Positions 12,030 through 44,292 of a DNA stretch of 64,000 nt are shown in pieces. Below the pieces are notes generated by a model. The model did no database searches. It was not told the DNA's origin and saw nothing but the letters and a program-made list of their open reading frames with translations. The stretch covers positions 86,244,001 through 86,308,000 of the forward strand of contig CM059432.1 of the NCBI GenBank assembly GCA_030390025.1. Reading direction: 5' to 3'. Every line of letters begins with the position of its first letter. Positions within the stretch are counted from its first letter, which is position 1. This DNA comes from Squalus acanthias. Taxonomy: Eukaryota. Position numbers and translations under genes: made by a program.

Positions 12030-12275
12030 TCATTTTAATGCTTTCCAACAGGGATGGCATTTCATCAATACACATAAACATTCACCCAATCTGCACACAG
12101 ATCTGGAGGTTATATCCCTTGCCAGCTGGACCCACACAGCCTTGGTTTCTTTGGGAGGCCTCTTCCTCCCAGATGAGGGAAAGAGCACCTCCCTGCTAGC
12201 CCTCACTCCCTCAACCAACATTTGCAGCGCTTCATCCGAGAACCTCGGGGAGGCCCTTACCTTGGAATTGGACAT
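12030..12275 (-). pseudogene. Truncated Myb/SANT-like gene of Harbinger A
   Basis: PRFSDEALQMLVEGV...VLFP...W..LA trihelix N-terminus; breaks off before the third helix. Confidence 0.8.
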
Positions 12276-18837: not shown

Positions 18838-19131
18838 GGCCCCTGCCATTGCTAACAACATTAATGAACCCAGCACGCAACCCCTAAGCCGGCCAAGGCA
18901 CCAATAATTCCAACCACCAACCATGTATATTTTGAATACAGAAACTTATTTATTTTACAAACTCTGTGTGTGTCAATTCCTCATGACAAACTCATAGAAA
19001 TAAACACAAAAAAACAGTCAATAACATAACTGGTTCTCACAACCTGGAGATAATGTCCAAAACACTAAACAAAAGTTGGACCATGAACCTCGACCTTTAA
19101 TAAAAAAATGACCAGCATTTTGTCACACCTC

Positions 19132-21008: not shown

Positions 21009-21385
21009 GCTTGGCAGCAAAATGGATTCACAGGTCTCTCCAGGCCGAGATTCAAGGCTGCAATGAGCAGGGTGTGGCTGGGGAGCAAGTTGGCCCCCCC
21101 CGCTTTAAGAAGTGGCCGGCGCCAGTGTGTCTGTGTTCCCTCGCTAACTGGCAGCAGCTGTGCTGCGCTCGCGCGCTGAGTTAGCGCCTCACTCCTTGGC
21201 CTTTGCGCCTTAAGACAGGTGTGCAGCGCCTGATTTAGCGCTCCACTCACCTCCCGGGGCGGTAAAAGTGAAGTTTCCAGTCAGTGCCGATAATTAGCGC
21301 CAGGCGCTAATATTTGCGTCCAGACGATATTTGCGCCCCAAATGGGGCGCGACCTAATTTTTACCCCATTGTGTTTAAATCTCAA

Positions 21386-21431
21386 GGGGGAAAAATTCAT
21401 TTGCTTTGCACCTCCCATTAGCGCCCTAAGA
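21386..21431. mobile_element. Solitary Harbinger family-B terminus
   Basis: GGGGGAAAAATTCATTTGCTTTGCACCTCCCATTAGCGCCCTAAGA matches the ends at 17175 and 39270. Confidence 0.8.
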
Positions 21432-21799
21432 TACAGGACCACATAACAATATCATTCTTCCCTCCAAGAAAAGATATGGATGAAAACTGGCAGGACGTAA
21501 CAGTGACAGACGTAAAAAGTGGGAAAAAGATAAAGCATAAATTTTTTTTAAATGTATTCATGCACAAGACAAACATTCTCCCGCCTCCATTTTTCAGACA
21601 TTCTTTGTTGATAATTGTTACAATTCATGCTATTCCCAATAATGTTTACACATGCTCACAACAAAATTCAGCTTCCATAGGTAAGCCCATGCTTTCCTTG
21701 AACCGAAGCATGACCTTATGGGTAAATATCTGGAGCAGTGTCACAAGACAAAGAATTAACCTTTCTACCTTTGGAGTACGCACCAGAAATAATAAGATC

Positions 21800-22041: not shown

Positions 22042-22786
22042 GGCCCAAAAATTCGGCTGAATACGGGAGAGTATGAACTGTGCACTCTCGCGTATTCAGT
22101 CCCGAAGTGCCGGTTTCCTGCATGCACTGCGCATGCGCGGGAAACCGGCACTTCGGGTATGGCGAAGGGGGCGGTTCTTAAGTGAACCGCGTGCGCACTA
22201 CAGGCTGCGCGCATGCAGCGCACTTAGGTTTTTTTTCAGGTTTCAACGCGAAGGTAAGTATGGAAGATTTTACACGTGAAGAAAGGAGGCGTAAGACCCC
22301 CTTTTAACAAGGTAAGTAGTTAATTAAGTATTATTTTACATTTTTTTCAACAGGTTTATCTTTTTTAGAGACTTTAAAGAAATATAAGTTTATTTTTATA
22401 ACTTTTAAAAAATTTAAATTTTTGTTTAAAGTGGTTAATTTATTTAACTATAGTTATTTTATTAATGTGATAGGTTTTTAAAAAAATTTATTTGAGGTTT
22501 AGCTGTTCTTTTGGGGGCAATTTGTATTCATAGTTTTGACAGTTCTCCTGTCAAAGCTATGAATGAAAGATGGTGTGCTGCCATTGGCTCTCCATGCCCC
22601 ACGTGATCCCAGAGGTCGCATCGAACTAACTGCGCCTCTGGGACACGCACACACTGCGCGCTGGCACCAGGGAGAGGCCCAGGAGCTGAAGTTCGTGTGG
22701 GCCCGAAACACAACGGCCGGCGCGGAGTGTGATATCGCGGGGGATCCTTACCCCCGCGGCAAGACTCCGAGTCAAATTTCTGGGCT
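22042..22786. mobile_element. Harbinger-type MITE
   Basis: TIRs GGCCCAAAAATT / AATTTCTGGGCT, TSD AAT. Confidence 0.8.
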
Positions 22787-24691: not shown

Positions 24692-26580
24692 ATAAGAACA
24701 TAAGAACATAAGAAATAAGAACATAAGAAGAACATAAGAAATAAGAGCAGGAGTAGGCCATACGGCCCCTCGAGCCTGCTCCGCCATTCAATAAGATCAT
24801 GGCTGATCATCGACCTCAACTCCACTTTCCTGCCCGATCTCCATAACCCTTGATTCCCCTAGAGTCCAAAAATCTATCTATCTCAGCCTTGAATATACTC
24901 AAAGACTCAGCATTCAAAGATTCACAACCCTCTGAGTGAAGAAATTCCTCCTCATCTGTCTTAAATGGCCTACCCCTTATCCTGAGACTATGCCCCCTAG
25001 TTCTAGACACTCCAGCCAGGGGAAAACAACCTCTCAGCATCTACCCTGTCAATCCCCTTCAGAATCTTGTATGTTTCAATGAGATCACCTCTCATTCTTC
25101 TAAACTCCAGAGAGTATAATAGGCCCATTCTGCACAATCTCTCATCATAGGACAGCCCTCTCACCCCAGGAATCAATCTAGTGAACCTTCGTTGCACCGC
25201 CTCCAAGGAAAGTATATCCTTCCTTAGATAAGGAGACCAAAACTGTGCACAGTACTCCAGGTGTGGTCTCACCAAGGCGCTGTACAATTGTAGTAAGACT
25301 TCCTTACTCTTATACTCTAACCTCCTTGCAAAAAAGGCCAACATGCCATTTGCCTTCCTTATTGCTTGCTGTACCTGCATGCTAGCTTTCTGTGTTTCTT
25401 GCACGAGGACACCCAAATCTCTCTGAATACCAACATTTGAAAGTTTCTCACCATTTAAAAAATATTCTGTTTTTCTATTTTTCCTACCAAAGTGAATAAC
25501 CTCACATTTCCCTACATTATACTCCATCTGCCACCTTACTGCCCACTCACTTAGTCTATCTATATCCCTTTGCAGACTCTTTGGGGGTGATTTTGCCAAT
25601 GGGGACGTGATGGAGGCGGGACTGCTGCTTGTCGGGTTTTAGTCCCACCTCCATCGACGTCCGGCCAACCCACGCTATTTTCCCTTGATTGACCTTGTTA
25701 AGCCCGCCAATTAAGGGAAAGCCGGTTACTGGTGACGTCAGCGAGCTTTTGACAGATGAAATGTCAGCATTTGACAGCTCTGTGAAGCTGTCAAACACTG
25801 ACAATCTGTCTTCTAAGTTGAGACCTGGGACACAGGCTTACTTAGAGTTCTCTCCTGAGCAGAAAGCAGAAGGCTGATGCATTTGAGAATGCAGCGTCCA
25901 TTCTGCTTTCTCTGCTGGTGAGATAATGACTCCCGAGACCTGAAGGGTTGAAGCCTGGAGGAAGAAGCAATGGTAAGTAAAGCTTTTAAAACACTTAAGA
26001 CTCACCTCACACACTTGCACCCATCACTCACCTGCACATCGGACATCTCGGCCCCTCCGATCCCTGCAGACCCACGGCTCGCCTCGCTGACCCTGGCAAG
26101 GTTCGGAGCCATCGGGAAGCCCCCACTTTAGGTGGCAAAATAGGGATTATCCAAAAAACTGCCTGTTAATTGGCACTAATCTCCTTCCCGCCTCGAGGAG
26201 GTGGCTCCCAGCGCGGATTGGGTACCCGCCTCCTGGGAAGATGGCATGGAGGCGGGTTGGGAGCGGGTTGGGCACCCGCCCCCAGATTCTGCCATTTTTC
26301 CGGCAGTCCCGCCTCCATACCCGCCTCCCCAGGGCTGGCAAAATCGCCCCTTCTGTGTTCCCCTCACAGCTTACTGTCCCACCTAGCTTTGTATCATCAG
26401 CAAACTTGGATACATTACACTCGGTCCCTTCATCTAGGTCATTACTATAGATTGTAAATAGCTGAGGCCCCAACACTGATCCTTGTGGCACCCCACTAGT
26501 TACAGCCTGCCAAACTGAAAAAGATCCGTTTATCCTTACTTTCTGTTTTCTGTCCTCTATCCATGCTATTATATTACCCC
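24692..26580 (-). mobile_element. CR1 LINE 3' half, interrupted by MITE 25583-26351
   Basis: (ATAAGAAC)n tail; [27 protein letters not shown]. Confidence 0.92.
25583..26351. mobile_element. Harbinger MITE (family A-like)
   Basis: TIRs GGGGGTGATTTTGCC / GGCAAAATCGCCCCT; TSD TTT/TCT; homologous to 58038-58870. Confidence 0.88.
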
Positions 26581-26724
26581 CAATCCCATAGGAGCAGGAA
26601 TTATACCAATATGTGATCAGAGATGGCCTTATCTGTGATTGGAAGTATCGAGGCTACGTGAGATGGCAAGGTCAAGGGGATGGCTGTGAAATGGGAAGGG
26701 GAGTTCATATGGAGGGAGAGACAC

Positions 26725-27510
26725 TTTGGTAGGAAAAATAGAAAAGCAGAGTATTTTTTAAATGGTGAGTGATTGGGAAATATTTAATGTTCACAGGGAC
26801 ATGGGTGTCCTTGTACACGAATCACTGAAAGTTAACATGCAGGTACAGAAAGCAATTAGGAAAGCAAATGGTATGTTAGCCTTTATACAAGAGGATTTGA
26901 GTATGAGAGTAAATACGTCTTACTGCAATTATATAGGGTCCTGGTGAGACCACACCTGGAGTATTGTGTACAGTTTTGGTCTCCTTACCTAAGGAAGGAT
27001 ATACTTGCCATAGAGGGAATGCAACGAAGGTTCACCAGACTGGTTCCTGGGATGGGGGGATTGTCCTATGAGGAGAGATTGAGTAGACTCGGCCTATATT
27101 CTTTTGAGTTTAGAAGAATGAGAGGTGATCTCATTGAAACATACAAAATTCTTACAGGGCTTGACAGGGTAGATGCAGGGAGGATGTTTCCCCAGGCTGG
27201 GGAGTCTAGAACCAGGGGTCACAGTCTCAGAATAAGGGGTCGGCCATTTAGGACTGAGATGAGGAGAAATTTCTTCACTCAAGGGGTGGTGAATCTTTGG
27301 AATTCTCTACCCCAGAGGGCTGTGGAGGCTTAGTCGTTGAGTATATTGATGACAGAGATCGATAGATTTTTGGATATTAAGGGAATCAAGGGATATGGGA
27401 TAGTGCAGGAAAGTGGAGATGAGGTAGAAGATCAGCCATGATCTTATTGAATGGCGGAGCAGGCTCAAAGGGCCAAATGGCCTACTCTTGCTCCTATTTC
27501 TTAAGTTCTT
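26725..27510 (+). mobile_element. CR1 LINE 3' portion
   Basis: RPHLEYCVQFWSP, RRMRGDLIETYKI and CR1 tail. Confidence 0.92.
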
Positions 27511-28124
27511 ATAATGCCTACCGGTTCAGTCGTGCCAAGGAGACAAGGGTCTCATCAAAACATTCAGAGGGATGTGTGGACAGTGCAGTATCAGCATCTG
27601 CAAACTATTGATAAAATTGAAGTACCGGACTGTCCAAAATGTTGTAGGTCTTCTCCACTTCCGTAAGAACACAAAAGACATACACAATAGGAAGTAATCT
27701 CTGTCGTGTCTCCTGACATTTCTGTGCAACAAAGTGGGCAGCGTAATTCATTAATCAAATTGCACACTTCAACTTTAGTATTCTCTCCTTAACAAACGTC
27801 TCTAAGTAACTCGACGCAGCCTCAGACGGCTCATCCGTCCCCGTCAAATCGGGAATCAATTTCTCACTGTCGGCCATATCACTTAGTTTCTTTTGGACAG
27901 CTTCTCTCACAAGCACCATTATGGTTACTATTACTATTGGAAGAGGCTAAAGTTCCTCCACTCCCATCTTGTCGCAAAACGGTTTCCTACCCCCGACATT
28001 AGGTTGCGATCCTTCACTGTCCAGAGTGTTTGAACCAGGGTCTTGCTGTATTCGTCAGATTTGTCATAAATCCAACCCCGATACCTTATGGGTGGTGACG
28101 AGATTCTTTATTGAGGTGCTCAAA

Positions 28125-28475
28125 CCAAGTTGATGCTGAGAGACTGTTTCCCCTGACTGGAGAGTCTAGAACTCGGGGTCATAGTCTCAGAATAAAGGTC
28201 AGCCATTTAGGACTGAGATGAGGAGAAATTTCTTCACTCAAAGAGTTGTGAATCTTTGTAATTCTCTACCCCAGAGGGCTGTGGATACTCATCCATTGCG
28301 AATACGCAAGACTGAGATTGATAGATTTTTGGGTACTAAGGGAATCAAGGGATATGGGGTTATGCGGGAAAGTGGAGTTGATGTAGGAGATCAGCCATGA
28401 TCTTACTGAATGGCAGAGCAGGCTTGATGGGCCATATGGCCTATTCCTGTCCTATTTCTTATGTTCTTATGTTCT
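28125..28475 (+). mobile_element. CR1 LINE 3' end
   Basis: RRNFFTQRVVNL.NSLP; (TTCTTATG)n tail. Confidence 0.9.
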
Positions 28476-29689
28476 AAATTAAGACAATTACAATGCTCGG
28501 GCGATAGTTATAAGAACAGAACAATATTATCCCGTTCCCTTCTTGAGTAGAGTCGTTACCCAACCAATATTTTCTTCTCCTCTGTAGCTTTACCTCTACT
28601 ACTGACCTCTTACAATCACATGTACCTATAGTGGTCTAGTAATCGGTACCAGCCTGACCCTTGTGCCTGGAACTTCAAAATCTGAAGTTGTTTTACCAAC
28701 ATAAGAAGGTCAGGGAAGATAAGGTCAGTCCATCCATTGATTCTGGAGGTGATTTTCTGGTATTTGCCTGGGCACTATGTTATTCTGTATCCAGGAGCTA
28801 ACCATTCCAGGGCAGTGGTATGTTTATCTATTCCTCCACAGTGCTGGTGTATAGTTAGCCACATAGCAAGTTTTAAGTTATTGTTGGCTTTCTCAGATCA
28901 CCGGAAGCAGCATTTTTCGTGTGGGGTCTGAACAGTGGGAAGGTTCAAAGAGGAGCAGGACCAATTTGTTAAAAGAAGTTTCACATTGGAGCTCCACCAA
29001 TCTGTCGCTCAGGAAGGAAGGATGACAAAATGGTGATATATCTCAAGTTAAGTTGTGTATGACTTGAAGGTGACGGTGTTTCCACCACATTGCTGCTCAT
29101 CCTTCTCGGTAGTAGAGGCTGCAGGGGAAGACTGTGCTGTCGAAGTAAGCTTGGTGAGTTGATACAGTGCGTCCTGTAGATTGTACTTTCTACAGTCACG
29201 TTGCACTGGTGATGGAGGGGGTGGATATCGAGGCCAGTGGCAGGTGCACCAATCAAATAAAGTACAATTTAAATGTATGCCCTGAAGTATGGGACTGCAT
29301 GAGGTGCAATGAAGGAATTGTAAGGATGTGTAAGGCTTGGCATAGGTGAGCAGTGAATGTGGAACAGGTGGAGAAGCAATATTTTGTGGCATGATTGTTT
29401 TGGGCTAATCTGCAAGTACATGCTACTGTTGGGTAGCCTCATCTTTTCAGGTTCTTTAAAGTATGGTATGCGTATTGTACAGTAACCCAGAGGACAAAGT
29501 TCAAGTCCCACCATGGAAATTTGTGAAATTTTATTTAATAAAATCTGGTAATTTGTGGGCATCAGAAAAAAAATACCATTAAAAATCCAACTGGTTCACT
29601 ACGGTCCTTTGGGGATACGAACCTGCCACCCCTACTCAGCCTGGAATACAAAGGACCTATGTTCCCTGTAACGTGCACGGGTAGGCAGC

Positions 29690-30270
29690 CACACAGTGAT
29701 CTGTAAGCTCCCGCGCACTTAAATTCACAGGCTGCGCAGTGAGCTCGAGACCTGGAGCAGTGGGATGGGCCCAGCCCAACGAGCGGGAAAAAAACAGTGC
29801 CCTAAACAAAGATGGCGGCCCTATGCGTCCCATAAAGCAGAACTCCCACCCGCATTAAGTTGGCGTCACCCGTGCCCCAGGCAAAGATGGCAGCGTTGCT
29901 CTATCAACAAAGCAGCAGGATCCCCGCCCCGTATAAATATGGCAGCACTCTTGCTCTGGACAGCAAAAGCGGCTCTGGCGCTCCGCACAAAGATGGCTGC
30001 AGGGCCTTTTCCGTCAGGTGGTTTGACGCCATTAAGGTTGCCTTCCCAGAAGTGACGCCTGGTGAGTTGGAGTCGAGCGTCCGGAGGGCAGCAGCTGGAG
30101 GTCCGGTTACCATGGGAGCGAGCGGCGAGGGGAGCAGCCCGGTCGGAGGCCTGCGGGAGCCCGAGCAGCCCAGCATGGTAAGGAGGAGGCTACGGACCCA
30201 CCCGCTGGCAGCACACTTCCTGTCACGTGCGCTCCACGTTAGCGCAGCTCCGCCCGGCACTGGGTGAGCA
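29690..30270 (+). promoter_or_regulatory. CpG-island-like promoter with four YY1-type AAKATGGC motifs
   Basis: CpG-dense non-repeat sequence; motifs at ~29809, 29884, 29936, 29990; splice donors at 30062, 30178, 30264. Confidence 0.6.
30112..30177 (+). CDS. Candidate first coding exon (MGASGEGSSPVGGLREPEQPSM, or only the final ATG)
   Basis: Kozak-like ACCATGG; ATG|GTAAGG donor. Confidence 0.45.
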
Positions 30271-31220
30271 ATGGACTGTCCCAGCTTAAGTCCTGCAAAT
30301 GTTTAGCTGTGCTGTATAGTATTCTGTCTTTGCTTCTGGTCCTGTAAAGTATGGAGCCATCTGGACAGTAGTTTAATCTTTAGAAAGTATTCTAGAGTTG
30401 TGAATAATTTCTGCCTTCCGAGATATAGTGCAGATCCTACATGAGATACAGTGGATATCCTACAGAAGGTGTAATGCAGATCCTGCAGGAGATATAGTGG
30501 GTATCCTACAGGTTCTTCAGTAAGTGATTTACCATGATCGGGGTTAACTGTTAGAACTGAGCTGCTATAACTCAGTGTGGCAGAGAGTAAAAGATGCTGC
30601 TTCTCAGTTCATAAGAGAAGCAGTCTCCTTATGGAAACTGTTGCCAAGCCATTTACATGATGATAAAGTTTTGAAAACCTGAACTTTAACACCTGCATCA
30701 TCTTAATTAACACAGAGTTATGCTGCACCTACCAGGCCCAGCCCAGGCCGCTCCAGACCCTGGGGGTGAAGGGGTATCTCTGGGTACCGGGGGTGAGTTG
30801 GAATATATTTATTTTTAGCTTAACTTTAAAAAAATAATGATCCTGCTCTCTAGACAGTGAGGGGAAGAAATTCGGAATCGCCCCGTTTGGGCGCAATTAT
30901 CAGCTGGGCGCAAAGTTTAGCGCCTGGCGCAAATTATTGCCTCCAACTGCAAACTTGGCTTCTATCGCCCCTGGAGGTGATTGGAGCGCTAAATCAGGTG
31001 CTGCACACCTCTCTTAAGGCGCTAACGCCGAGGAGCGAGGCGCTAACTCAGAGCGCTGGCGAAGCTCAGGTGATGTCAGTTAGCAATGGAACACAGACAC
31101 ACTGGCGCCGGCCAGTTCTTAAAGGAGAGGGTTGATCTTGCTCTCCAGCCACACCCTGCTCATTGCAGCCTTGAATCTCAGCCTGGACAGACCTCAACTT
31201 CAAATCTGCTGCAAGGAACA

Positions 31221-32937
31221 ATGGAGAGGGTCAGGGAACGAGCTCAGCGCCCGGGCCTTGGTGGCTCTGGTTGGTGCAGTGGAGCGCCGAAGACCAATAC
31301 CCTACCCACAGTGTGGCAGGAGGCCATTGCCCCGCGATTATAGAAGAGTGTGGAGGGAGGTGGCTCAGCACGTCTCCTCCAGGAGCATGGTGCCCAGGAC
31401 CCACACACAATGTCGGAAGAAGTTTAATGACCTCACTCGGGTGGTCAGGGTGAGTGGCTGCTTTTCAATACCTCTCCATCCCTCCATCTCAACCTCACTC
31501 TGTGGCCAGAGGGTGTAAAAACCCCAAATGCCCAACACTCATCCCAGACCTATGGTCATCTAATAAAACACACACGCACATTCCACACCTTGCATACATT
31601 AAGGGCTATTCAACTATGGGAGGCACATCAGGCAAGCACATGGCTGCACATTTAGTCAGACGCCGTCCTTTTTCTTGCAGGCCAAGCTATCTCATAACAG
31701 GCGGCAGCAGTAATGGACGGCTAGAGGGCCGCCTCAGCTGCAGACCCTCAGCGATTTGGAGGCGCGTTTCAAACCAGGTGATAAGTCCCGTGGCCGCTGG
31801 AGAGGTTGACCCCCCTTGGGCACAGCAATGGTAAGTTCATCAGCTTTCTCTCCTCTCATTCCACTTGTCCCTCACAAAACCAGTCTTTTACACTTTCAAT
31901 CCAACTTACTAAATCGCTCCAGTCCTTGCTCCCCTGTCCTGACGCTAAAGCCACTCTTGTACCTCCCTGCTTTCAGATGGTGAACCACCAGCTGAGGAGC
32001 CTGGCCCTCAACCAACCAGTGGGAGTGACGCCGCAGGTGAGGAGGAAGAGGAAGCTGAGCCTCAGCACCAGCGTCTCCCGAGGGAGCCCATGCCCACACT
32101 GGGACCACGTCTTCCCTGGAGGGGAGCAGGGGGGAAGGGTCTGATGAGGGTGAAACTCTGGGATCCAGCGGGCTGTAGCAACGCCATGGGGGTAGGGAAG
32201 CTCGGGGGCCATCTCCCTGGAGGGAGAGTAGGCCAGCGAGTCCTGCTGCACTGGACGGAGAGGAGGAGCGGCTCATCGCGGAAATGAACACCCAGGTGGT
32301 GAACATGCACACTCAGCTCATGGGTGCAATGGGAAGGGTGCCCGAAAGCATTGATGGACTGGCAAGGAGTGTGCAGCACAGGCCGATGCAACGCAAGGGC
32401 TTAGTGCTGCAATTCAGTCACTGGCTGCAGTGATCCAATCTCAGACTGCTCTCATGCAGACTCAGATTGAGGTCACGCAAGCACTGACTGCTGCCATCGT
32501 CGCTGGTTCGGCCACATTGCCCCGGGGTTCTCACGGCGCCGCAACAGGCCAGCAATCTGTGCTCGAGCAGATTGCTCCGGATGCTGAGGTGCTGCCCCGT
32601 GGGAGTGCCAGTGTGTCGGTCGAGCAGGGAGGCGCTGTCCTCTCTCAGGATGACAGCATTCCTGCTCCCACCACTGTCATTTCCCCATTCCACTTGTCAC
32701 CGCCAGCAACACAGCCAGCCCAGACTGCTGCCGCCCATGCAGAGTTGGTGCAGTCTGCATTCGGGGCCTCCAGGCCCAGAGCTGGTCAAGGGCGTCCTTC
32801 AAGGGCATCTGTAGTCTCAGCATCTGACATTCAGCAGCCTTGCTGCAGCCACTGGGGCCCCATTACGGAGGAGCAGGAGGGTGGGAAGGGGAGAAGTGCG
32901 CAAGGGATGGAGATCACCCTCGAAGGGCAAAAAGTAG
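31221..32937 (+). pseudogene. Myb/SANT-like gene pseudogene (3 exons)
   Basis: WREVAQHVSSRSMVPRTHTQCRKKFNDLTRVVR; same intron positions as the intact copy; frameshifts. Confidence 0.88.
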
Positions 32938-33248
32938 GAGGTCTAAAGAAATGGTGGGAATGTTTTTATTAAAGGCCGAGGTTCGTCTGATAACTTTTGT
33001 TTAGTGTTTTGGCCATTATCTCCAGCTTGTGAGAACCAGTTATGTTAATTAATGATTTGTGGTGTTTGTTTCTATTAGTTTGTCATGAATAAATGGCACA
33101 CACAGAGTTTGTTAAATAAAAAAGTTGTTGTATTCAAAATGTACATGTTTGGCCCTTGTATCATTGCTGCTTTGGCCGGCTATAGGTGTTGCGGGTTGCT
33201 TTCCATGATGTTGTTCTCCATGCCAGAAGCCATCTTCTGAGCAGGGGC

Positions 33249-34380
33249 CTAGAAGCGGCTTGTTATCAGCCGTTGACGGACAGCCCTTGCAGTTTCAACA
33301 TTGTGGGTCTCCCTCCCGCCTTGGTGCTGCTGCTGATCATCCTCCTCCTCCAGTGGTGCACCAATCCCTGGTGGCATTGGCTGAGTCCTCAGGATTGCCA
33401 AGTTGTGGAGCATGCAGCATCCAACTATGAAGAGGGAGACTCGCTCAGGAGAGTACTGCAGGGCTCCTCCTGAGTGGTCCAGACAGCGGAACCGTTGCTT
33501 GAGCATGCCGATCGTCTGCTCAATTATGTTCCTGGTGGTGATATGGCTCTCATTATACCGCAGTTCGGCAGGGGTGTTGGGGTTACGGATCGGTGTCATC
33601 AGCCAGGTGCAGAGTGGATAACCCTTGTCCCCGAGGAGCCATCCACTTAGCTGATGCGATGCCTGGAAAAGGTCGGCACACCAGTCTGGCGCAGGATGAA
33701 AGCATCGTGGTTGCTGCCAGGATAGCGGGCATTGACGGCGAGTATGAGCTGTCTGTGGTCACAGACCAACTGAACATTTAAGGAGTGGTAGCCCTTGCGG
33801 TTTCGGAAAACCTCTGCATTTTCATGCGGTGCCCGCAATGCCAAATGTGTGCATCAATGGCGCCCTACACCATGGGGAAGCCGGCTATCCTAGCAAAGCC
33901 ACATGCGCGTTCATTCTGTTTGGCCAGGGTCATGGGGAAAGAGATGTACTGGCGTCTCCTTTTATAGAAGCCATTTGTCACCTCCCGGATACAGCAATGG
34001 ACAGCGAACTGGTAGATATTGGCGATGTCCCCAGTAGCTGCTTGAAAGGAGCCGGTGGCATAAAATTTCAGAGCCACTGTCACCTTCACTGCCACTGACA
34101 GAGACGTCCTGGTCCTCAGTTGAGGCTGCAGATCTGGTTACAGCAGGTGGCAGAGCTCAGTGACCACCTCCTTGCTGAAGCGCAGCCTGTGCAAACACTG
34201 CTCCTCAGACAAATGAATGTAGGAGAATTGTTCCCGGAATACCCTGGGAGGGTAAGGTCTCCTGTGCAGATGCTTGTTGGCCCTGCTCCCTCTGGCCATG
34301 TTTTGGCACTCTCTCTCTGCGTCTCTGATGCCTCTGATTCTGAAGGTGCAGGACGACGCCCCGAATCAGTGCAGCCCCCA
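33249..34380 (-). pseudogene. Harbinger transposase pseudogene
   Basis: [45 protein letters not shown] in broken frames. Confidence 0.9.
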
Positions 34381-35365
34381 GTCTCTTCTAAATCGATGCA
34401 AGGAAGGTCAAATCAAAAAGAACCTGCAAAGTGCTGCTCAGTAGCAAAACTCCTTCATACAGTGTTGAATCTCTCCAGAAGTCTCTCTCGCTCTCGCAGA
34501 ATCTCTCTCTCTCTCTCAGAATGCGTGGTGCAAAAATGTCTCCCACAAAAAAAGGCAGGAAGAGGGCGCCTTTAAATAGCGCTCCCCCAGCCCCTTCCCG
34601 ACTGCAAAACGTTCCCCTCAACCTGCTGTTGCTAGCGGCAGGCGGAAAGGAAGGGGGCGCCACTCAATATCCGGTCCGGGGCGCTACTGGGGCGTTGCAC
34701 ACTCGACTGATGTCACGATCTGCGGGCGCAGGAGATTGTGGCGGTAGAGTTTAGCGCCGCCGCAAAATCTCTGGTCAATTTCGCGAGCAGCGCAAACTTC
34801 ACCGTGCCCGGGCGCTACTTGCTTTGCTAACTGGAGGCGCAAAGCAACCGAATTTCTCCCCGAGTGTCTTTGTGAACCTCTTCAGGCAAAACTTTTTTTT
34901 TATGTTTCACATTTCAATGCATGCGGTGTAATGCAGACAAAGATGAGTTGTGGATGTGTAACCCAAGAAGACGGTCCTGAACTGGAAATGTTGATGTGAA
35001 TGAGTGTCTGTTTAAAGCCGAACAATACCAAGGCAGGAGGAGGAGGGAAGCACTTTTTAATCTTAAATTAGGTGGCAGTTCTACAAGAGCTTTTGCTCCC
35101 ATGTGAAGTGGTTTTGGGTGCACTTCAATGAAAACGTGGTGGTATAACCAAAAAGATAATTGAGGGTAATAATAAAGGCATGAGGCAAGAGTCTCATAGG
35201 TGTTTATGTTTGCACTGAGTGCACATTAACTCCAGCTTTAGTTTCTCACCACCTCCCAACAAATGTTGGAAACAAAGTTATTGCTAATGTCTGGTGTACT
35301 AATGAGAATACTTAACAGAACAATTCATTTGGTTCATCAAGTGTTTTCCTTCCACCAACAATATC

Positions 35366-35501
35366 CAGTCTGACGAAGGGTCATCGACCTGAAACATTAA
35401 TTCTGTTTCTCTCTCCACAGATGCTGACTGACCTGCTGAGTATTTCCAGCATTTTCTGTTTTTATTTCAGATTTCCAGTATCTGTAGTATTTTGCTTTTG
35501 T
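35366..35501 (+). mobile_element. Penelope-like element terminal fragment carrying a minimal hammerhead ribozyme core
   Basis: CTGACGA-AGGGTCATCGACCT-GAAAC at 35370-35395; 12-bp direct repeat AATATCCAGTCT at 35360 and 35502. Confidence 0.7.
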
Positions 35502-35561
35502 AATATCCAGTCTATTTGTTTTTGGGATGAGACATTAAATCTGCTCCTGTGGTTCAGATGG

Positions 35562-36010
35562 ATTAATAAGCAACAGCCAGCATGGATTTGTTAAAGGCAA
35601 ATTGTGTCTGACTAACCTGATTGAGTTCTTTGATGCAGTAACAGAGAGGGTTGATGAAGGTAGTGTAGTAGATGTATATATGGACTTTCAAAAGGCATTT
35701 GATGAAGTACCACATAACAGACTTATTTGGAAAATAGAAGCATATAGTATTAAAGGGACGGTGGTAGCTTGGGTACATAATTGGCTACGGGATAGTAGTG
35801 GCTGAGAGTAGTGGTGAACGGATGTTTTTCTGACTGGAGAGAAGTATACAGACGGGTCCCCCAGGGGTCGGTATTAGGACCATTGCTTTACTTGTTATAT
35901 ATAAATGACCTGGACTTGGGTATAGGGAGTACAATTTTGAAGTTTGCAGATGATACAAAACTTGGCAATGTAGTAAATAGTGAGCAGGATAGTAACAGAG
36001 TAGAGGTAGA
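35562..36010 (+). mobile_element. CR1 RT fragment
   Basis: [32 protein letters not shown]. Confidence 0.9.
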
Positions 36011-36477
36011 ATAGGATGTGTAAGACTCTGTCCAGAATGTATACTGAAGTGAGGTTCCCTCTCACTAAACCTCCAGACCTTGACATAATGGCCATCTTGA
36101 TGGTTTGAATGATAATCAATTTAACCTGATGTTTCCTGACTGAATTTACAAAGGAATAGGAGATGACCTGGACAATTTCAGATAGTTAATGTGACCTTGC
36201 TAATAGTTGCTAATGTGTTAGCTTTGGTGCCTCCATTGTTTTGGCCAATCTGCTATTAACACCTCACATGGGATGTTGCTGGCCCGTCTGCTTCGTCCTA
36301 CTCCACCATTGTCCCTACTAATCTCCAATATTAGCATATCCTAAATTAGCATACACTAATGTGGTTTATAAAGCAAAAAAGAGAAACTGATTTTATGATT
36401 TTTAAGAGTTTGTCTGATTGTCTCATGATTTGCGATGGTGGGGTGGCAATATGGCATTACTGTATATATGCTTTGAT

Positions 36478-36549
36478 GTGGTTGTTGTTGTAAAAGTTGT
36501 TGTTGTTGAAAAAGTTGCTGTTGTTGTTGTAAAAGTTGTTGTTGTTGTT
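36478..36549. repeat. Compound (GTT)n microsatellite interrupted by AAAA
   Basis: Direct reading. Confidence 0.9.
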
Positions 36550-36929
36550 ATAAATTTGTCCACGGACAAAAAGGTTGCACTCAAAGGAGTCCGTGGCCCG
36601 CTCAGTACAAAAAAAATTTAGAGGGAACATTGCAAAGGACTCTAGTCCCACAGTACATGGTTGACTTCCAATAATTAGGGTCACCCACTACCCAAGAACA
36701 ATTTTTTTTAATGTTGCGTCGCCCACATCTGTTCCTGAATACTGTACACTGGTATGATGCATTGTTATCTTTTGGGAGGTTGCCCTGGACAATAAATAGA
36801 TCCTCACGCCCACTTTATGCAGCATGTTTACTTTGTCAGCCATCAGACAGGGTCAATGGTTGTTCTAGTGCATCACTTGTCCACAGACTTAAAATTGCTT
36901 TTTATCTATCACTTCTTCCATTTCTGCAG

Positions 36930-36970
36930 GCTGAAAAAATATTCCCCCTCTCCTATGCAACCACTTATCT
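36930..36970 (+). CDS. Candidate internal exon (AEKIFPLSYATTYL in phase 0)
   Basis: Long pyrimidine tract TTCTTCCATTTCTGCAG and GTAAGT donor; phase compatible with the exon ending at 30177. Confidence 0.45.
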
Positions 36971-37099
36971 GTAAGTCCCTGCATGTTCGATGTTTTCATG
37001 CTTTTCAGACCTGGAGGCTGCTTTCGGGCATTCGGTCGTCTTCTTGATGACATTAGCTGGCAAGTTCTCGGTGAACTAGCACACACAAGGAGACCACGT

Positions 37100-38545
37100 G
37101 TAGGTTGTCATCAGCTAATCCTTAACCGGATAAAACTGGCTTTAGAAGCCGCCCTCACAAACAAGCAGGCGGGCTTCAGAGAGGGAAAAAGCTGCTCTGA
37201 CTAGGTCCTTGCACTCACTACCAACATTGAGGCAAGGTTCTAGAAGCAGCTGAAGACTCGGCATACGACACGGTCTGGCATGAAAGTCTGCTACTGAAGC
37301 ATTCAATAATCATCCAATACCGCAAGACCCTCAGGCTTATCAACACCCTAACAAGCAACCGTAAGTTCTGCGTCTATCTTAGTGACAAGACCAGCCGAAC
37401 ACAGATGCTCAACAACGGTCTGCCACAGGGGACGGTGCTTGCACCGGCCTTTTTCAACACCTATAAGGCGGACATGCCCTGCACCAAATCCTGGAAGTTC
37501 GCATATGCCGATGACATAGCACTGCTGACGCAGGCATCAACGCTAGAAGAAACAAGTAGGATGCTAACAAGTGATCTGGACCTACTGGAACGCTACTTTC
37601 GGATCTGGCGCCTCCACACCAATCCAGAGAAAACAGTTGTGTTGACGTTCTATCTGAACAACAACTCCGCCGCGAAAGAAGTCAACGTTTCATTCTGCGG
37701 AAGGTGACTTATCCATGAACTGCACCCAAAATACCAGGACTCTCACCTATCGGCCTCATCTCACCAATACCGGCCAAAAAGTAAAAGCCAGGGTGAACCT
37801 GGTCTGGAAACTCGCTGGAACGTCATGGAGGAGCACAGCCAGAACTTCGCACCACAACAGTGGCCCTAGTCTACTCTGCTGCAGAATACTGCTTTGCCTC
37901 ATGGTTCTGCAGTCGCCACACAAAGACTGTGGACATGCAGCTAAACGCCGCCATGAGGACGGTGTCAGGGATGCACAAGTCCACTCCAACTGAATGGCTC
38001 CCAGTGCTGTCCCACATTGCCGTGCTTGCCATTCGCCACGACGCCACCGTGCTCCGTGAGATGGAAAAGATCATGAGCAACACCGACCTTCCCATTCACG
38101 AAGACTTGAAAAACCCACCATGAAAGCACTTAAAATCACGCCGGCCATTCTGGGAAACAGCAGCCAATATTCACGCAGCTGGTATCGACCCATTATCCAG
38201 ATGGATGGAATCGTGGGACGCATGCAACATAAAGAACCAACACCTCATCACTAACCCAACAGCAGAGGTCCCTGGCTTCGACCTCCCTCAAAGACAGTGG
38301 ACAGCGCTCAACCAAATCCGCACAGGGCATGGACAATGCGGCCACCTGCTCCACAAGTGGCAGATGAGTGATGACCCAAAGTGCGGCTGTGGCCAGGAGT
38401 CTCAGACCATGGAACACATCACATCAACCTGCCCACTAAGAACTGTTGCGGGAGGCACCTCATTTCTCCACTCGGCATCTCAGGAGGCCATCGAGTGGAT
38501 AGCCCTACTAGACATCCCATTATAAGCTTTTCCCGTCATACGAAA
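37100..38545 (+). mobile_element. 5'-truncated Vingi/Ingi-clade LINE (RT plus C-terminal CCHC), degraded
   Basis: QAGFREGKSC, NGLPQGTVLAP, AYADDIAL, ALVYSAAEYC, PGFDLP..QW..LN.IRTG.G.C, CGCG..QTMEH...C; CATACGAAA end. Confidence 0.8.
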
Positions 38546-38548
38546 CAA

Positions 38549-39270
38549 GGGGGAAAAATTGAGTCGCACCCAAAAAAATTAGCGCCCCCGCGGCCGAAAT
38601 TCACCGGTAGCGCACCAAGAGGGAAGCGGGGTGCTACTAGAAGCGCTCCACCTCCCTCTTGGGGCGCTGCGAGTGAATATCGTGGTGCTACATGCCGCAG
38701 CGCCACGAGATGCGGCATGTCGCGCCGCGGTACTGCAGGCCTTCCTCCCCCTCTTAAAGGGGAGGGGCCTAGTGCAGCACAACCTGGGACCCAGCTGGGC
38801 CACCAGGGATCAGATTGCTGGCAAAAGAGCCCGGCACTCAAGAGAAGTGCCGGGCTCACAGAGCGCAGCCGGCACTCCGCGGGGGCTGCAGAAGAGGCCG
38901 GGGACGGCAGAGGGGGCAGGTGCTGGCAGGCGGCCAGCAACAAAAATGGCTGCCTGGCACCTTCCCTTTAATTAGCACCGCCCCGGCCGCAGGTAGGCCC
39001 CCCCTGACCCCGTCGGACATAGCGTCCGGCGGTAATCAGGGGTTGCTGCCGAAGATCGCAGCCGGGGCACGAATTGGGCACTGCACACAGCGATGACGTC
39101 ATCACCGGCGGCGCAGCACCACGGGGCGCTAACGGTTGCCGCCGCTAACTTCCCGCTGAATTTCGCAGGAGGTGTTGACAGCGCCGCGCCCAGGCGCGAG
39201 TTGCTTTGTGCTCCGTTAACGCCCTCTTAGGGCGCTAACGGGAGGTGCAAAGCAACCGAATTTTTAGGCC
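38549..39270. mobile_element. Harbinger MITE (family B)
   Basis: TIRs GGGGGAAAAATT / AATTTTTAGGCC; TSD CAA; subtermini match 17175 and 34861. Confidence 0.9.
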
Positions 39271-39379
39271 CAAGTCCCTACGTCCCTTTATATATTTCTC
39301 AGCAGCCCTCAAGATTGAGGACTGTTCAGTCACACTGAGTCAATGTGCACAGAGAGCATATTCTAACAATTTAAATCAT

Positions 39380-40326
39380 TGAATCATAGAATCATAGGAT
39401 GGTTACAGCATGGAAGAAGGTCATTCGGCCTGTCGAGCCGTGCCGGCTCTCTGCAAGATCACTTCAGCTTGTCCCACACCCCCGCCCTTTCCCTGTAGCC
39501 CTGCAAATTTTTTTCCTTCAGGTACTTATCCAACTCCCTTTTGAAAGCTGTGATTGAGTCTGCCTCCACCACCCTTTCAGGCATTGCATTCCAGATCCTA
39601 ACCACTCGCTGAGTAAAAAAGTTTTTCCTCATGTCGCCTTTGGTTCTTCTGCGTATCACCTTAAATCTGTGTCCTCTGGTTCTTGACCCTTCTGCCAATG
39701 GGAACAGTTTCTCTCTATCTACTCTGTCCAGACCCCTCATGATTTTGAACACCTCTATCAAATCTCCTCTCAATCTTCTCTGCTCTAAGGAGAACAATCC
39801 CAGCTTCTCCAGTCTATCCACGTACCTGAAGTCCCTCATTCCTGGAATCATTCTCATAAATCTTTTCTACACCCTTTCTAAGGCCTTCACATCCTTCCTA
39901 AAGTGTGGTGCCCAGAATTGGACACAATACTCCAGTTGAGGCCGAACCAGTGTTTTATACAGGTTCATCATAATTTCCGCGCTTTTGTACTCTATACCTC
40001 TATTCATAAAGCCCAGGATCCCATATGCTTTTTTAACTGCTTTCTCAACCTGCCCTGCCGCCTTCATCGATTTGTGCACATATACTCCAAGGTCTCTCTG
40101 CTCATGCACCTCCTTTAGGATTGTACCCTCCAATTTATATTTCCTCTCTTCATTCTTTCTACCAAAATGTATCACTTCACACTTTGCTGTGTTAAATTTC
40201 ATCTGTCACGTGTCTGCCATTCCACCAGCCTGTCTATGTCTTCTTCAAGTCTATCACTATCCTCCTCACTGTTCACTATACTTCCAAGTTTAGTGTCATC
40301 TGCAAATTTTGAAATTGTGCCCTGTA
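39380..40326 (-). mobile_element. CR1 LINE 3' part (host; resumes 45945-46170)
   Basis: (CATAGAAT)n tail; RPQLEYCVQFWAP. Confidence 0.92.
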
Positions 40327-40972
40327 TGTAAGAATATAAGAACATAAGAAATAGGTGCAGGAGTAGGCCACTCGGCCCCTTGAGCCTGCTCCGCCATTTA
40401 ATGAGATCATGGCTGATCCGATTTTGGCCTCAACTCCACTTTCCTGCCTGTTCCCCATAACCCTTGACTCCCGGTTGCTCAAAAAATCTGTCTATCTCAA
40501 CCTTGAATATATTCAATGACTCAACTTCCACATCTCTCTGGGGTAAAGAATCCAAAGATTCACGACCCTCTGAGAAAAGAAATTCCTCCTCATCTTCGTC
40601 TTAAATGGGCGACCCCTTATTCTGAGACTATGCCCCCTTGTTCTAGATTCCCCCATGAGGGGAAACATCCTCTCAGCATCTACCCTGTCAAGTCCCCTCT
40701 TTTACTCTATCCCCCTTGAAATAAAGGCCAGCATTCCATTTGCCTTCCTAATTACTTGCTGCACCTGCATGTTAACTTTTTGTGTTTCATGTTCGAAGAC
40801 ACCCAAATCCCTCTGTACCGCCACATTCTGTAGTCTTTCTCCATTTAAATAATATTTTTCTTTTCTATTCTTCCTACCAAAGTGGATAACTTCACATTTT
40901 CCCACATTATACTCCATCTGCCAAATTCTTGCCCACTCACCTAATCTATCTATATCCCTTTGCAGACTCTTT

Positions 40973-41768
40973 GGGCTGGATTTTCACAGCCCCGAGGAGG
41001 CGGGTATGGAGGCAGGTGTGGAGGCGGGACTGCCGGTAAAGTAGCAGAAAGTGGGGGCAGATGGCAAACCCGCCCCCATCCTGCCTGCGTGCCCTTTTGC
41101 CAGGAGGCGGGAAGATGTGTTGCTTCGGGTCCCGTCTCCTGGAGGCGGGAAAGGGATTAAATCCTTTTAACTGCCTGTTAAACTGGCAGGTACTTCTGCG
41201 AAATTCAGCGGGAGGTTAGTGGTGGAGGTAACCGTTAGCGCCCCGCAGTGCTGCGCCGCCGGCGATGACGTCATCGGCGTGCGCAGCGCCCTGCTCGCGT
41301 CCCGGCCTCGATCTTCGGTAGCGCCCCCTGACTTAACGCTGGACGCTATGTCCGACGGGGTCGGGGGGCCTACCTGCGGCCGAGGCGGCGCTTTTTAAAG
41401 ATGAGGTGCCGGGCGGCCATTTTTGTTGCTGGCCACTTGCCAGCACCTGCCTCCGCTGCCGTCCCTGGCCTCCTTACCCGCCCCCCCCGCGGAGTGCTGG
41501 CTGCGATCCGTGAGCAGGTGGCCCAGTTGGGCCCTGGTCGTGCTGTGCAAGGCCCCTCCCCTTTAAGAAGGGGAGGAAGGCCTGCAGTACCGCGGCACAT
41601 AGTGCCGCGATATTTCCTCACAGCACTCCAAGAGGGAGGCGGGGCGCTTCTAGTAACGCCCCGCTTCCCTCTTGGGGCGCTACCACTCAATTTCGGCCGC
41701 GGGGGCGCTAAAAGTAGTGCCCCGGCAAAGTTAGCGCCCCAAAGGGGGCGCAAATCAATTTCTCCCCC
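40973..41768. mobile_element. Composite of a family-A MITE end (40973-~41195) and a family-B MITE (~41198-41768)
   Basis: Left part matches the reverse complement of the 26351 end; right part is the reverse complement of 38549-39170. Confidence 0.82.
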
Positions 41769-43025
41769 TATATTTCTTGCTCGTTTACTCTCATAAGCTA
41801 TTTTCTCCCTCTTGATTATTTTTTTAGTCATCCTTTGCTGGTTTCTAAAATTTTCCCAAACTTCTGGCCTACCACTAATCTTTGCAACATTGTATGCCTT
41901 GTCTTTCAATTTGATACCATCCTTAACTTCCTTAGTTAGCCATGGTTGGTTCATCCTTCTCTTCGAGTCTTTCTTTCTCACTGAAATATATCTTTGTTGA
42001 GAGTCATGAAATATCTCTTTAAATGTCTGCCACTGCTTTTCTACCGTCTTACCTTCTAATCTATTTCCCCAGTCCACTTTAGCCAACTCTTTCCTCATAC
42101 CTTTGTAATTGCCTTTATTTAAGTTTAATACTCTAGTTTCAGACCCAAGTTTCTCACCTTCAAACTGAATGTGGAATTCAATCATGTTATGATCACTCTT
42201 CCCTAGAGGATCCTTTACTATGAGATCATTAATTAATCCTGTTTCATTACACATTATCAGTTCTAAAATAGCCTGTTCCCTGGTCGGTTCCACAATGTAT
42301 TGTTCCAAGAAACTGTCCCGAATACACTCTGTGAACTCGTCCTCAAGGCTGCTTTTGCCAATTTGATTTGTCCAATCTATATGAAGATTAAAATCACCCA
42401 CGATTATTGCAGTACCTTTCTTACAAGCCTTCATTATTTCATGATTTATACTCTGTCCTATAGTGTAGCTACTGTTAGGGGCCCTATAGACTACTCCCAC
42501 CAGTGCCTTCTTTCCCTTACTATTTCTTACCTCCACCCAAATTGATTCTGCATCTGGAACTTCCGAGTCAAGATCATTTCTCACTATTGTACTGATCTCA
42601 TCCTTTATTAACAGAGCTACCCCACCTCCTTTTCTTTCTGTCTATCCTTCCGAAATGTCAAATACCCTGAATATTCAGTTCTCAGCCTTGGTCACATTGC
42701 AACCATGTCTCTGTAATGGCTATTAGGTCATACCCATTCATTTCTATTTGTGCCGTAAATTCATCTATCTTGTTACAAATGCTGTGTGCATTCAGATAAA
42801 GAGCCTTTAATTTTGTCTTTTTATCATTTTTCCCTACTCTGACCTTATTGGCTGGTGCACTCTTATGTTTGTACGCTCTGTCCCTTCCTGTCACAGTCTG
42901 GTTTTCATTGCCCATATCGCTACCCTGCACTATTGCCCTGTCCTTTCTCTTTAACTTTCTAAATTTCCCCTCACTTGTACCCTTCCCCCCCCCCCACTAT
43001 TTAGTTTAAAGCCGTATCTACAGCC

Positions 43026-43958
43026 CTAGTTATTCGATTCGCCAGGACACTGGTCCCAGCATGGTTCAAGTGAAGGCCTGTCCCAACGGAACAGCTTCCT
43101 CTTTCCCCAGTACTGGTGCCAGTGCCCCATGAATCGAAACCCATTTCTCCCACACCAATCCTTGAGCCACGCATTCAACTCTCTGATCTTATTGTCCCTA
43201 TGCCAATTTGCTCGTGGCTCAGGTAGTAATCCAAAGATTATTACCTTTGTGGTTCTGCTTTTTAATTTAGACCCTAGCTGCTCATACTCCCTCAGCAGAA
43301 CCTCTTTCTTAGTCTTACCTATGTCGTTGGTACCTACGTGGACCACGACAACTGGATCCTCCCCCTCCCACTCCAAGTTCCTCTCCAGCCCCGAGGAGAT
43401 GTCCTTAACCCTGGAACCGGGCAGGCAACACAGCCTTCGGGGCTCCAGCTCTCGGCTGCAGAGAACAGTATCTATCCCCCTAACTATACTGTCTCCTACC
43501 ACTACAACACTCCTTTTTACACCCCCCACTTGAATGGCCCTCTGTACCACGGTGCCGTGGTCAGTTTGCTCATCCTCCCTGCAGTCCCTGCTCTCATCCA
43601 CACAGGTTGCAAGAACCTCGTAACTGTTGGACAAGTGCAAGGGATGAGGCTCCTCCAATGCTACCTCCTGGATCTCCATACCTGCCTCACTCGCAGTCAC
43701 ACACTCTTGTCCCTGACCACGGGCCAAATCTGAAGTATTTACCCTAAGGGGTGTGACTGCCTCCTGGAACAAAGTGTCCAGGTAACTTTCTCCCTCCCTG
43801 ATGTATCGCAATGTCCGCAGCTCGGACTCCAACTCATCAACTCTGAGCCGAAGTTCCTCGAGCTGCACACACTTACTGCAGATGTAGTCGTTTTGGATCA
43901 CACTGGTGTCCACCAGCTCCCACATGCTACAGCTGCAACACATCACCTGCCTTGCCAT
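43026..43958 (-). CDS. CR1 ORF1 protein (zinc finger, coiled coil, SGNH/GDSL esterase-like), C-terminus probably frameshifted
   Basis: CxxCxMW..CxxC, LRLRVDELESEL, VVGDSIVRG, LPGSRV, HVGTND. Confidence 0.88.
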   Translation of the reverse strand: MARQVMCCSCSMWELVDTSVIQNDYICSKCVQLEELRLRVDELESELRTLRYIREGESYLDTLFQEAVTPLRVNTSDLARGQGQECVTASEAGMEIQEVALEEPHPLHLSNSYEVLATCVDESRDCREDEQTDHGTVVQRAIQVGGVKRSVVVVGDSIVRGIDTVLCSRELEPRRLCCLPGSRVKDISSGLERNLEWEGEDPVVVVHVGTNDIGKTKKEVLLREYEQLGSKLKSRTTKVIIFGLLPEPRANWHRDNKIRELNAWLKDWCGRNGFRFMGHWHQYWGKRKLFRWDRPSLEPCWDQCPGESNN

Positions 43959-44292
43959 CTCTATTGTATTTTATTTAATTAATTACGTCAATATCAATCA
44001 ATTGGCTATTTATAGTTTTAATCTAGGTAAACTAGGTAATAACCTTGTTTAATTTATTAAATTTATTAAAATAAGTTTAGTTAGTTGTAACTTTAGTTAT
44101 ATGCTATATATCTTTACTGTAACCTAGCCCTCAGTCCTAAGAGAAAAGAAATACTCACCATCAATCACCTACCTGCTTACCTGTGATGTCACACTTTGAT
44201 TTTTTTTTTGTTATTGAATTGGAGCCTCACTGCTCCTCCCCCGCTGGATCTGCTTTCAGCCTCCTCTCGCTCCTCTTTATTCTGCTCCCGCT

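Follow-up and report, generated by a model that had tools for sequence, protein, structure and literature searches.

Two copies of a LINE, here termed host 1 and host 2, are interrupted by Harbinger-type DNA in a 64,000-nucleotide stretch of the Squalus acanthias genome (the window; Table 1). The hosts are assigned to CR1 by hallmarks that we take to characterize these elements, i.e. an esterase in ORF1, an APE endonuclease and a reverse transcriptase (RT) in ORF2, and a short tandem 3′ tail. Esterase and endonuclease domains are present in host 2 (Pfam Lipase_GDSL_2 and Exo_endo_phos_2), the RT is in host 1, and a tandem tail is found at 24700–24745. The RVT_1 match in host 1 (E 9e-7, 29.2 bits) is marginally below the Pfam scan cut-off of 29.6. 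The coincidence of two Harbinger-type ends at one CR1 base is real and is confirmed here.

Table 1. Harbinger-type elements of the window, the two interrupted CR1 copies and the target duplications of site 1 (positions are those of the window)
Feature	Position	Strand	Basis
Family-A Harbinger with transposase remnant (10820–11713), duplication TTC, outside CR1	10068–12559	+	Pfam DDE_Tnp_4, E 7e-31
Family-B Harbinger with two genes (448-aa frame for the transposase; Myb/SANT) and duplication ATT; motif source	17175–21367	+	
CR1 host 1, 3′ part (RT end to 3′ tail)	24716–25582	-	ORF 25003–25638; aligns with other CR1 copies
Left target duplication TTT of site 1, centre of near-palindrome GACTC-TTT-GTGT	25580–25582	.	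Letters of empty-site contigs
Complete family-A Harbinger-type MITE, 769 bp, 12-bp TIRs	25583–26351	+ (nominal strand)	Ends resemble the 58-kb copy and the 10-kb element
Right target duplication TCT of site 1, one change from TTT	26352–26354	.	Skip length in contigs
CR1 host 1, 5′ part, FADD motif of RT	26355–26590	-	Pfam RVT_1
Second family-B Harbinger, flanks GACAG / GTGTC; motif source	30861–34861	-	
CR1 host 2, 3′ part, ~250-bp internal deletion near 40697	40329–40972	-	Alignment to host 1
Family-A Harbinger end, other subfamily, opposite to site 1, truncated after ~220 bp	40973–41192	-	End alignments
Partial family-B Harbinger MITE, joined to the family-A end	41193–41768	.	464/542 identical to the MITE at 38549–39270
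CR1 host 2, 5′ part: ORF1 (esterase domain) and a 290-aa open frame for endonuclease and linker	41772–43970	-	Pfam
Family-A MITE, third copy, inserted outside CR1 at GACAC-CAG-GTGTG, with CAA as right duplication	58038–58870	+	

The transposases of the 10-kb family-A element and of family B (448 aa) are 58% identical. All eight nearest relatives looked up for the 448-aa protein are named putative nuclease HARBI1 and come from sharks and rays. Both family-B elements have a Myb_DNA-bind_5 domain (Pfam); the right junction of the one at 30861–34861 is parsed with a 2-bp deletion. A Myb/SANT-like frame in the 10-kb family-A element has been seen by eye only. Exact 3-bp duplications flank the elements at 10068, 17175 and 38549. 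The ends of the site-1 MITE resemble those of the 10068–12559 element (74% over 88 bp), which ties the MITEs to a Harbinger transposase. With these shared ends, short TIRs, a 3-bp duplication and Myb/SANT genes in the autonomous partners, the site-1 MITE is a non-autonomous member of the PHIS/Harbinger superfamily. The TWA duplication of PIF/Harbinger in the narrow sense is found in none of the ten central triplets (TTC, ATT, TTT, TGA, CAA, TAT, CAG, CAA, TAT, CTG). The window elements resemble NuwaI (PHIS) in TIRs that start with GGG, in having two ORFs (DDE and Myb/SANT genes), in a length of ~4.2 kb and in the animal host, but its defining CWG duplication occurs at only two of the ten sites and is missing at eight (PMC4482050).

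Site 1 has a complete insertion. The ORF at 25003–25638 reads KSLQRDIDRL... directly after the MITE end, and the CR1 reading picks up again at 26355. Public contigs were compared over 24760–26595 for four of 17 listed runs, at the level of contigs only; contig depth over this region is not copy number and is not used as such. In the four runs, 25, 14, 26 and 23 contigs span the empty site via a 772-base skip, i.e. the 769 bp of the MITE and the 3 bp of the duplication, and the empty site is common in all of them. Thirteen of the 15 joints listed (860 in all) jump over the MITE, and none of the 15 shows a strand change. Among the 24 loose contig ends listed, of 7938, none marks the junction in a way that would allow insertions to be counted. 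All four listed contigs that reach the site end at 25583 without entering the MITE, and one picks up at 26357. The contigs also include a CR1 type with GCCTC-TTT-GCATC at this position. The C at 26351 was considered as proof of the TIR end and rejected, as empty CR1 copies have the same letter.

The 3′ part of host 2 terminates at the same CR1 base as that of host 1, and the last 25 bases are identical in both hosts, in agreement with the original prediction that the same CR1 RT sequence precedes both insertions. When aligned in reverse complement, the far end of the site-1 MITE matches the end at 40973 in 135/186 columns (72.6%), as had also been predicted, compared with just 81/149 (54%) for the near end; the 40973 end therefore has the opposite orientation. 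The prediction of Harbinger MITEs at an identical base holds for the base, but not for the second element, which is not whole: site 2 is occupied by fused partial ends, a unit of 796 bp in which family A and family B join at ~41192. The family-B piece is without ~100–125 bp of one end and has the 3-bp flank TAT at 41769–41771. Site 2 has a single junction only and no matched target duplication of its own. Beyond the fused unit the CR1 sequence restarts ~0.95–1 kb upstream (in the 52-kb CR1 copy, the two corresponding points are 944 bp apart); host 2 is otherwise well preserved.

A target motif was derived from the other Harbinger ends of the window. A rule-based TIR scan gave 33 matches, of which 14 were kept, two were focal ends and were set aside, and 17 were dropped as internal to elements or CR1, as duplicates, or as both unpaired and unverified. 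The end at 51231 was shifted by one base and that at 34861 added by hand, which gives 15 non-focal half-sites, a set that mixes families and includes 61714, an end without a verified partner. These have a purine at -4 (15/15), A at -2 (13/15) and a pyrimidine at -1 (12/15). Zebrafish Harbinger3_DR and Harbinger3N_DR have a 15-bp palindromic target (PMC3016246, PMC2836001). Compared with the two half-sites published for Harbinger3_DR, the 15 half-sites agree at 41 of 60 bases, where 18.5 are expected and none of 100,000 random draws does as well; the five paired elements alone match at 27 of 40 vs. 12.4 expected. GACTC-TTT-GTGT itself agrees with the published 15-mer at eight of 12 flank bases (consensus as shown in PMC3016246). 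The flanks in the window match the ACAC/AGAC half-sites of Harbinger3_DR symmetrically, as for an extended palindromic target of that type.

Scored with the matrix of these half-sites, which is free of focal ends, the CR1 site ranks third to fourth of 1044 positions in host 1 and ninth to tenth of 3982 in the pooled CR1 pieces, and lies within the top 0.12–0.18% of window positions. Seven empty CR1 copies that belong to other sequence types score low at the homologous position (top 8–74%), and none has an insertion there. When each paired element is left out in turn, four of six fall in the top 0.15%; the other two, the 10-kb family-A element (top 23%) and the 38.5-kb element (top 14%), fit poorly and speak against the motif reading.

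Under uniform insertion, two insertions on one CR1 base have p = 0.00025–0.001 per pair, so that the coincidence exceeds uniform chance. The motif model raises this to 0.75–3.75% per pair, with a 0.16% chance that a single insertion lands on a particular base of this kind in the window, and both window copies with the exact GACTC-TTT-GTGT site are occupied; chance over many windows or a stronger specificity is therefore also needed. The recurrent target proposed earlier is plausible and has a known cause, as the site fits the palindromic target of vertebrate Harbinger elements, but the motif alone leaves the coincidence unlikely. The further idea that CR1 acts as a landing pad, with a preference of Harbinger for CR1 as a whole, is not supported within the window: three of 11 Harbinger sites are in CR1, which makes up 31.5% of non-Harbinger DNA (P(≥3) = 0.72).

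Targeting beyond the short motif, whereby family A would recognize a longer or structural feature of CR1 and the RT region would serve as a landing pad, is an unlikely but not negligible reading. Occupancy of both exact-site copies speaks for it, as do the location of two of the four family-A ends at the focal base, the low yield of the short motif (~1–4% per pair) and the identity of the hosts over the last 25 bases despite 84% overall. It is weakened by the two remaining family-A elements (10068 and 58038), which are outside CR1, by the absence of CR1 enrichment, by the empty sites common in all four runs and the contigs that end at 25583, and by other CR1 positions, which match or exceed the motif score of the focal site. 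Dada elements resemble the present case in that a DNA transposon occupies one set place within a repeated sequence. They are specific to small-RNA genes (PMC3706591, PMC8869645), while family A is also at unrelated sites, with two of its four ends or elements in the window away from the shared base and outside CR1.

It is improbable that site 2 is an aberrant transposase endpoint at a preferred site, either a chimera of a family-A left end and a family-B right end with loss of the target, or an adjacent deletion. The 796-bp unit does have left-type and right-type ends in proper polarity, its outer triplets TTT/TAT are alike at two of three positions, and the two transposases are related; however, the flanks are ~1 kb apart in CR1, a chimera has no second copy in the window, a 2/3 match in T-rich triplets is weak, and the same target preference would still be required.

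The two insertions appear to be independent, as originally predicted: the 40973 end falls in a different subfamily, and neither host is more similar to the other than to copies with an empty site. Over the terminal 92 bp, site 1 is 95.7% alike to the 58-kb copy and ~82% to the 40973 end, which has a different TIR and a 12-bp insertion. Within the first 100 columns, the 40973 end groups with the 10-kb element at four, with the 58-kb copy at one and with site 1 at none. Five columns at alignment positions 108–120 pair site 1 with site 2 and count against independence; they coincide with a 10-bp gap of the 58-kb copy. The hosts are identical at 230/275 and 276/318 positions (84–87%), compared with 81–85% between hosts and empty copies. 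Two of seven testable host-1 variants are shared by host 2, again counting against independence, and five are absent. A 203/277 match of the outer flanks of the two sites was set aside as an artefact of low gap costs; blastn gives no match. Least probable, by a little, is a copied composite of CR1 and MITE (retrotransposed in trans or duplicated), followed by inversion or replacement of the MITE in one of the copies: base and family are the same at both sites, host divergence (13–16%) is comparable to that of the MITE ends (~21%, 144/182 identical) and two variants are shared, but an unrelated copy is nearer to site 1 than the 40973 end is, the TIR, insertion and four columns shared with the 10-kb element set that end apart, five variants are missing from host 2, and the unmatched outer flanks argue against segmental duplication, though not against retrotransposition.

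The same-base insertions are thus quite probably explained by a base that lies in a short palindrome already known to be preferred by Harbinger, and not by an element that seeks LINEs. Two related family-A (PHIS) elements would have inserted independently by cut-and-paste. The transposase complex may read a symmetric target with a free 3-bp centre and half-sites R-N-A-Y, best ACAC, similar to that of zebrafish Harbinger3_DR. The near-palindrome would arise in one CR1 subfamily from the D-T-K-S codons just past the FADD motif of the RT. As the target is symmetric, either orientation would be accepted, and the high abundance of the CR1 subfamily would present this favourable site over and over; a genome-wide peak at this base may exist. 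Host 2 would then have lost ~1.6–1.7 kb between the family-A insertion and a family-B insertion ~1 kb away, which produced the fusion.

The mechanism is ordinary; the example is new. Compared with Harbinger3_DR by description and half-sites, the window shares the two-gene Harbinger with non-autonomous partners, the 3-bp duplication and the extended symmetric target, but differs in the free central triplet (CWG in 2/10). A close parallel is Stowaway in intron 4 of Triticeae beta-amylase, where separate lineages of MITEs reached one and the same base by independent insertion; that case concerns one gene across species and Tc1/mariner-type elements, and here paralogous LINE copies of one genome are involved (PMC1925063). 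No Harbinger hot spot in CR1 is reported in the titles and abstract openings of the literature searched, mostly outside subscription journals. Patterns of the MITE end and of the CR1 site had no match in the viral and metagenome contigs scanned. For proteins reading across the junctions, 6 of 617 and 4 of 5 candidates matched, and the five inspected (1/6 and 4/4) are LINE fragments without a MITE part.

Homing of a DNA transposon to a LINE would be shown only if occupancy of the site far exceeds that of motif-matched controls. There is a slim chance that family A reads a longer or more stringent target than that published, that the RT of this CR1 subfamily holds its best match, and that one LINE base takes a measurable share of insertions in both orientations. 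If so, the base would serve the DNA transposon as a safe sink, breaking the RT of a competing LINE, and neighbouring insertions would seed deletions, as in host 2. On the reading favoured here, the zebrafish target motif also extends to a cartilaginous-fish lineage, with the central triplet free. The window then gives a clean example that common descent does not follow from Harbinger MITEs sharing an insertion site in repeats, and this bears on presence/absence markers and on the dating of nested repeats in shark genomes.

The junctions at 25583 (site 1) and 40973 (site 2) follow the same CR1 sequence, as the original prediction held, and the two hosts are identical over the 25 bases leading up to the junction. 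Once reversed, the 40973 end aligns with the site-1 element's far end at 72.6% over 186 columns, against 54% for the near end; the two are in opposite orientations, also as proposed. The site-1 insertion point lies about 15 codons past the RT's FADD motif, on the minus strand. Empty copies of this site are common: public contigs span it with a 772-base skip (25, 14, 26 and 23 contigs in four runs), and the empty-site sequence between contig joints reads on as GTGTCC. Among the joints listed (15 of 860), 13 skip the MITE and none shows a strand change; all four of the listed contigs that reach site 1 end at 25583.

The claim that two MITEs share one base has to be modified. The site-1 element is whole, but site 2 is an incomplete MITE, an end of about 220 bp from the same family (A) joined near 41192 to a piece of a second Harbinger family (B) that ends at 41768. 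This piece is identical to the MITE at 38549–39270 at 464 of 542 positions. Past it, CR1 picks up again at the linker between endonuclease and RT, where a 290-aa frame is open, as is ORF1 further along; the CR1 resumption points flanking site 2 are 944 bp apart when placed on the 52-kb CR1 copy. Because the family-A end is fused to the family-B piece and CR1 resumes about 1 kb off, site 2 offers a single junction without a matched duplication. The simplest history would be two Harbinger elements entering a single CR1 at points about 1 kb from each other, followed by a deletion of about 1.6–1.7 kb between them.

Sites 1 and 2 are better read as independent insertions, as had been suggested, than as a copied composite. 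Over the terminal 92 bp, the site-1 element is 95.7% identical to the family-A copy at 58038–58870 and 82% to the 40973 end, which has a different TIR and a 12-bp insertion. Within alignment columns 1–100, the 40973 end groups with the 10-kb family-A element at four columns, with the 58-kb copy at one and with site 1 at none; five later columns pair it with site 1, and these are located at a gap in the 58-kb copy. The hosts are no closer to each other (84% and 87% in two segments) than host 1 is to two insertion-free CR1 copies (85% and 81%). Host 1 departs from the bulk of contigs at seven testable positions; host 2 agrees with the bulk at five of these and with host 1 at two. No blastn match joins the outer flanks of the two sites.

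A likely reason for the shared base is the target sequence. A rule-based TIR scan of the window gave 33 matches, of which 14 were kept, two (the focal ends) set aside and 17 dropped; one end was added by hand. In the resulting set of 15, a purine stands at –4 (15/15), A at –2 (13/15) and a pyrimidine at –1 (12/15) of the half-site, positions that were chosen post hoc, after inspection. Comparison with the zebrafish Harbinger3_DR, whose published 15-bp target is quoted as AAACACCWGGTCTTT (PMC3016246), was a test set beforehand: 41 of 60 bases agree where 18.5 are expected, and none of 100,000 random draws scored as high. The five paired elements alone match at 27/40 (expected 12.4). Extended target preferences are described as spanning 9 bp for plant elements and 15 bp for vertebrate ones (PMC2836001). 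With a matrix from the 15 non-focal ends, the CR1 site (GACTC-TTT-GTGT) ranks 3rd–4th of 1044 host-1 positions and 9th–10th of 3982 when CR1 pieces are pooled, and falls within the top 0.12–0.18% of the window under three settings; 8 of its 12 flank bases agree with the published 15-mer. The homologous position in seven empty CR1 copies, which have other sequence types, reaches only the top 8–74%; this set leaves out three rows (two non-CR1 matches and host 1), and near the scored position one copy has a frameshift and another a deletion. A symmetric target would account for both orientations.

Some results count against this motif reading, and perhaps the elements home to this CR1 base with a specificity beyond the short motif. 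The chance of two insertions on one CR1 base is 0.025–0.1% per pair if uniform and rises to just 0.75–3.75% with the matrix, and both window copies bearing the exact site are occupied. By leave-one-out, the motif fits poorly for two of the six paired elements, including one from family A. If about 150 scanned windows with 1–3 such pairs each are assumed, 1 to 17 coincidences are expected under the motif model and 0.04 to 0.4 under the uniform one, and therefore the picking of a striking case is able to close the gap. Such extra specificity seems improbable.

The window DNA is eukaryotic and rich in repeats, with delimited Harbinger-type elements summing to 16,345 bp. Judged by sequence, the MITEs and their coding relatives at 10068–12559 and 17175–21367 are PHIS/Harbinger elements. 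The MITE ends match those of the 10068–12559 element at 74% over 88 bp, and the transposase of the latter is 58% identical to that of the two-gene 17175–21367 element, which also has a Myb/SANT gene (Pfam). The eight nearest relatives looked up for the 448-aa transposase are all shark and ray proteins annotated "putative nuclease HARBI1", which points to a cartilaginous fish as the probable host. The narrow PIF/Harbinger and NuwaI groups are set by TWA and CWG duplications, respectively, as PMC4482050 presents them; the window elements have TWA in 0/10 and CWG in only 2/10, and thus are placed in neither. The 17175–21367 element looks young. The solo end beside it may stem from a local hop or from an insertion that was aborted, and the GC stretch at 22042–22330 is a possible further MITE family, with one putative end found and the partner end not located.

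Features of the window, with coordinates on the forward strand
Feature	Position	Description
Tandem repeat array	5396–6015	Degenerate; minus strand C-rich
Family-A element	10068–12559	2.5 kb; codes for DDE_Tnp_4 transposase remnant (Pfam)
Family-B Harbinger	17175–21367	Perfect 12-bp TIRs; exact ATT duplication; open 448-aa transposase frame; Myb/SANT gene on opposite strand
Internal repeat of the preceding	20464–20631	60 bp, 108-bp spacing
Solo family-B end	21386–21432	About 46 bp; only 18 bp beyond the 4.2-kb element
GC stretch	22042–22330	Rich in palindromes; opens with TIR-like 12-mer; contains GTAAGT motifs
Site-1 MITE, complete	25583–26351	769 bp; 12-bp TIRs; 3-bp duplication, TTT left, TCT right
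Splice-like stretches of family-A MITEs	25960–26010, 58460–58510	GTAAGT donor-like motifs, then branch- or acceptor-like stretch
Family-B MITE	38549–39270	Exactly at 3′ end of an RT-coding LINE, presumably RTE-like; CAA duplication; flanks fit motif poorly
Fused unit, site 2	40973–41768	Left-type end family A, right-type end family B; polarity proper
CR1 host 2	41772–43970	Open frames: 314-aa ORF1, 290-aa endonuclease-linker; RT core deleted; several stops in 3′ part; 3′ tail lodged in another CR1 copy (39388–40326)
Harbinger-like element, other family	49586–51231	TAT duplication
Harbinger-like element, other family	60869–61714	Left end blurred, within G run

We take the host LINEs to be CR1 on general hallmarks of the group and Pfam matches. 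CR1-like pieces total 15,023 bp, or 31.5% of the non-Harbinger DNA, and 3 of 11 Harbinger sites lie inside them, in line with that share (P of 3 or more = 0.72); the remaining two family-A elements are outside CR1. The idea of CR1 as a landing pad is thus unsupported in this window, and the original interpretation as a whole is partly supported. Scans of viral and metagenome contig collections and protein searches across the junctions gave nothing further, and a literature search of titles and abstract openings found none on a hot spot for Harbinger within CR1. Dada elements are marked by strict targeting of multicopy sequences (PMC3706591, PMC8869645); family A in the window is not so restricted. 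There is a precedent in Stowaway, for which distinct MITE lineages are reported as repeatedly inserted at one site (PMC1925063). Sites 1 and 2 are probably a fresh example of a known phenomenon, in which a sequence-preferring Harbinger meets its own motif in a very abundant repeat.
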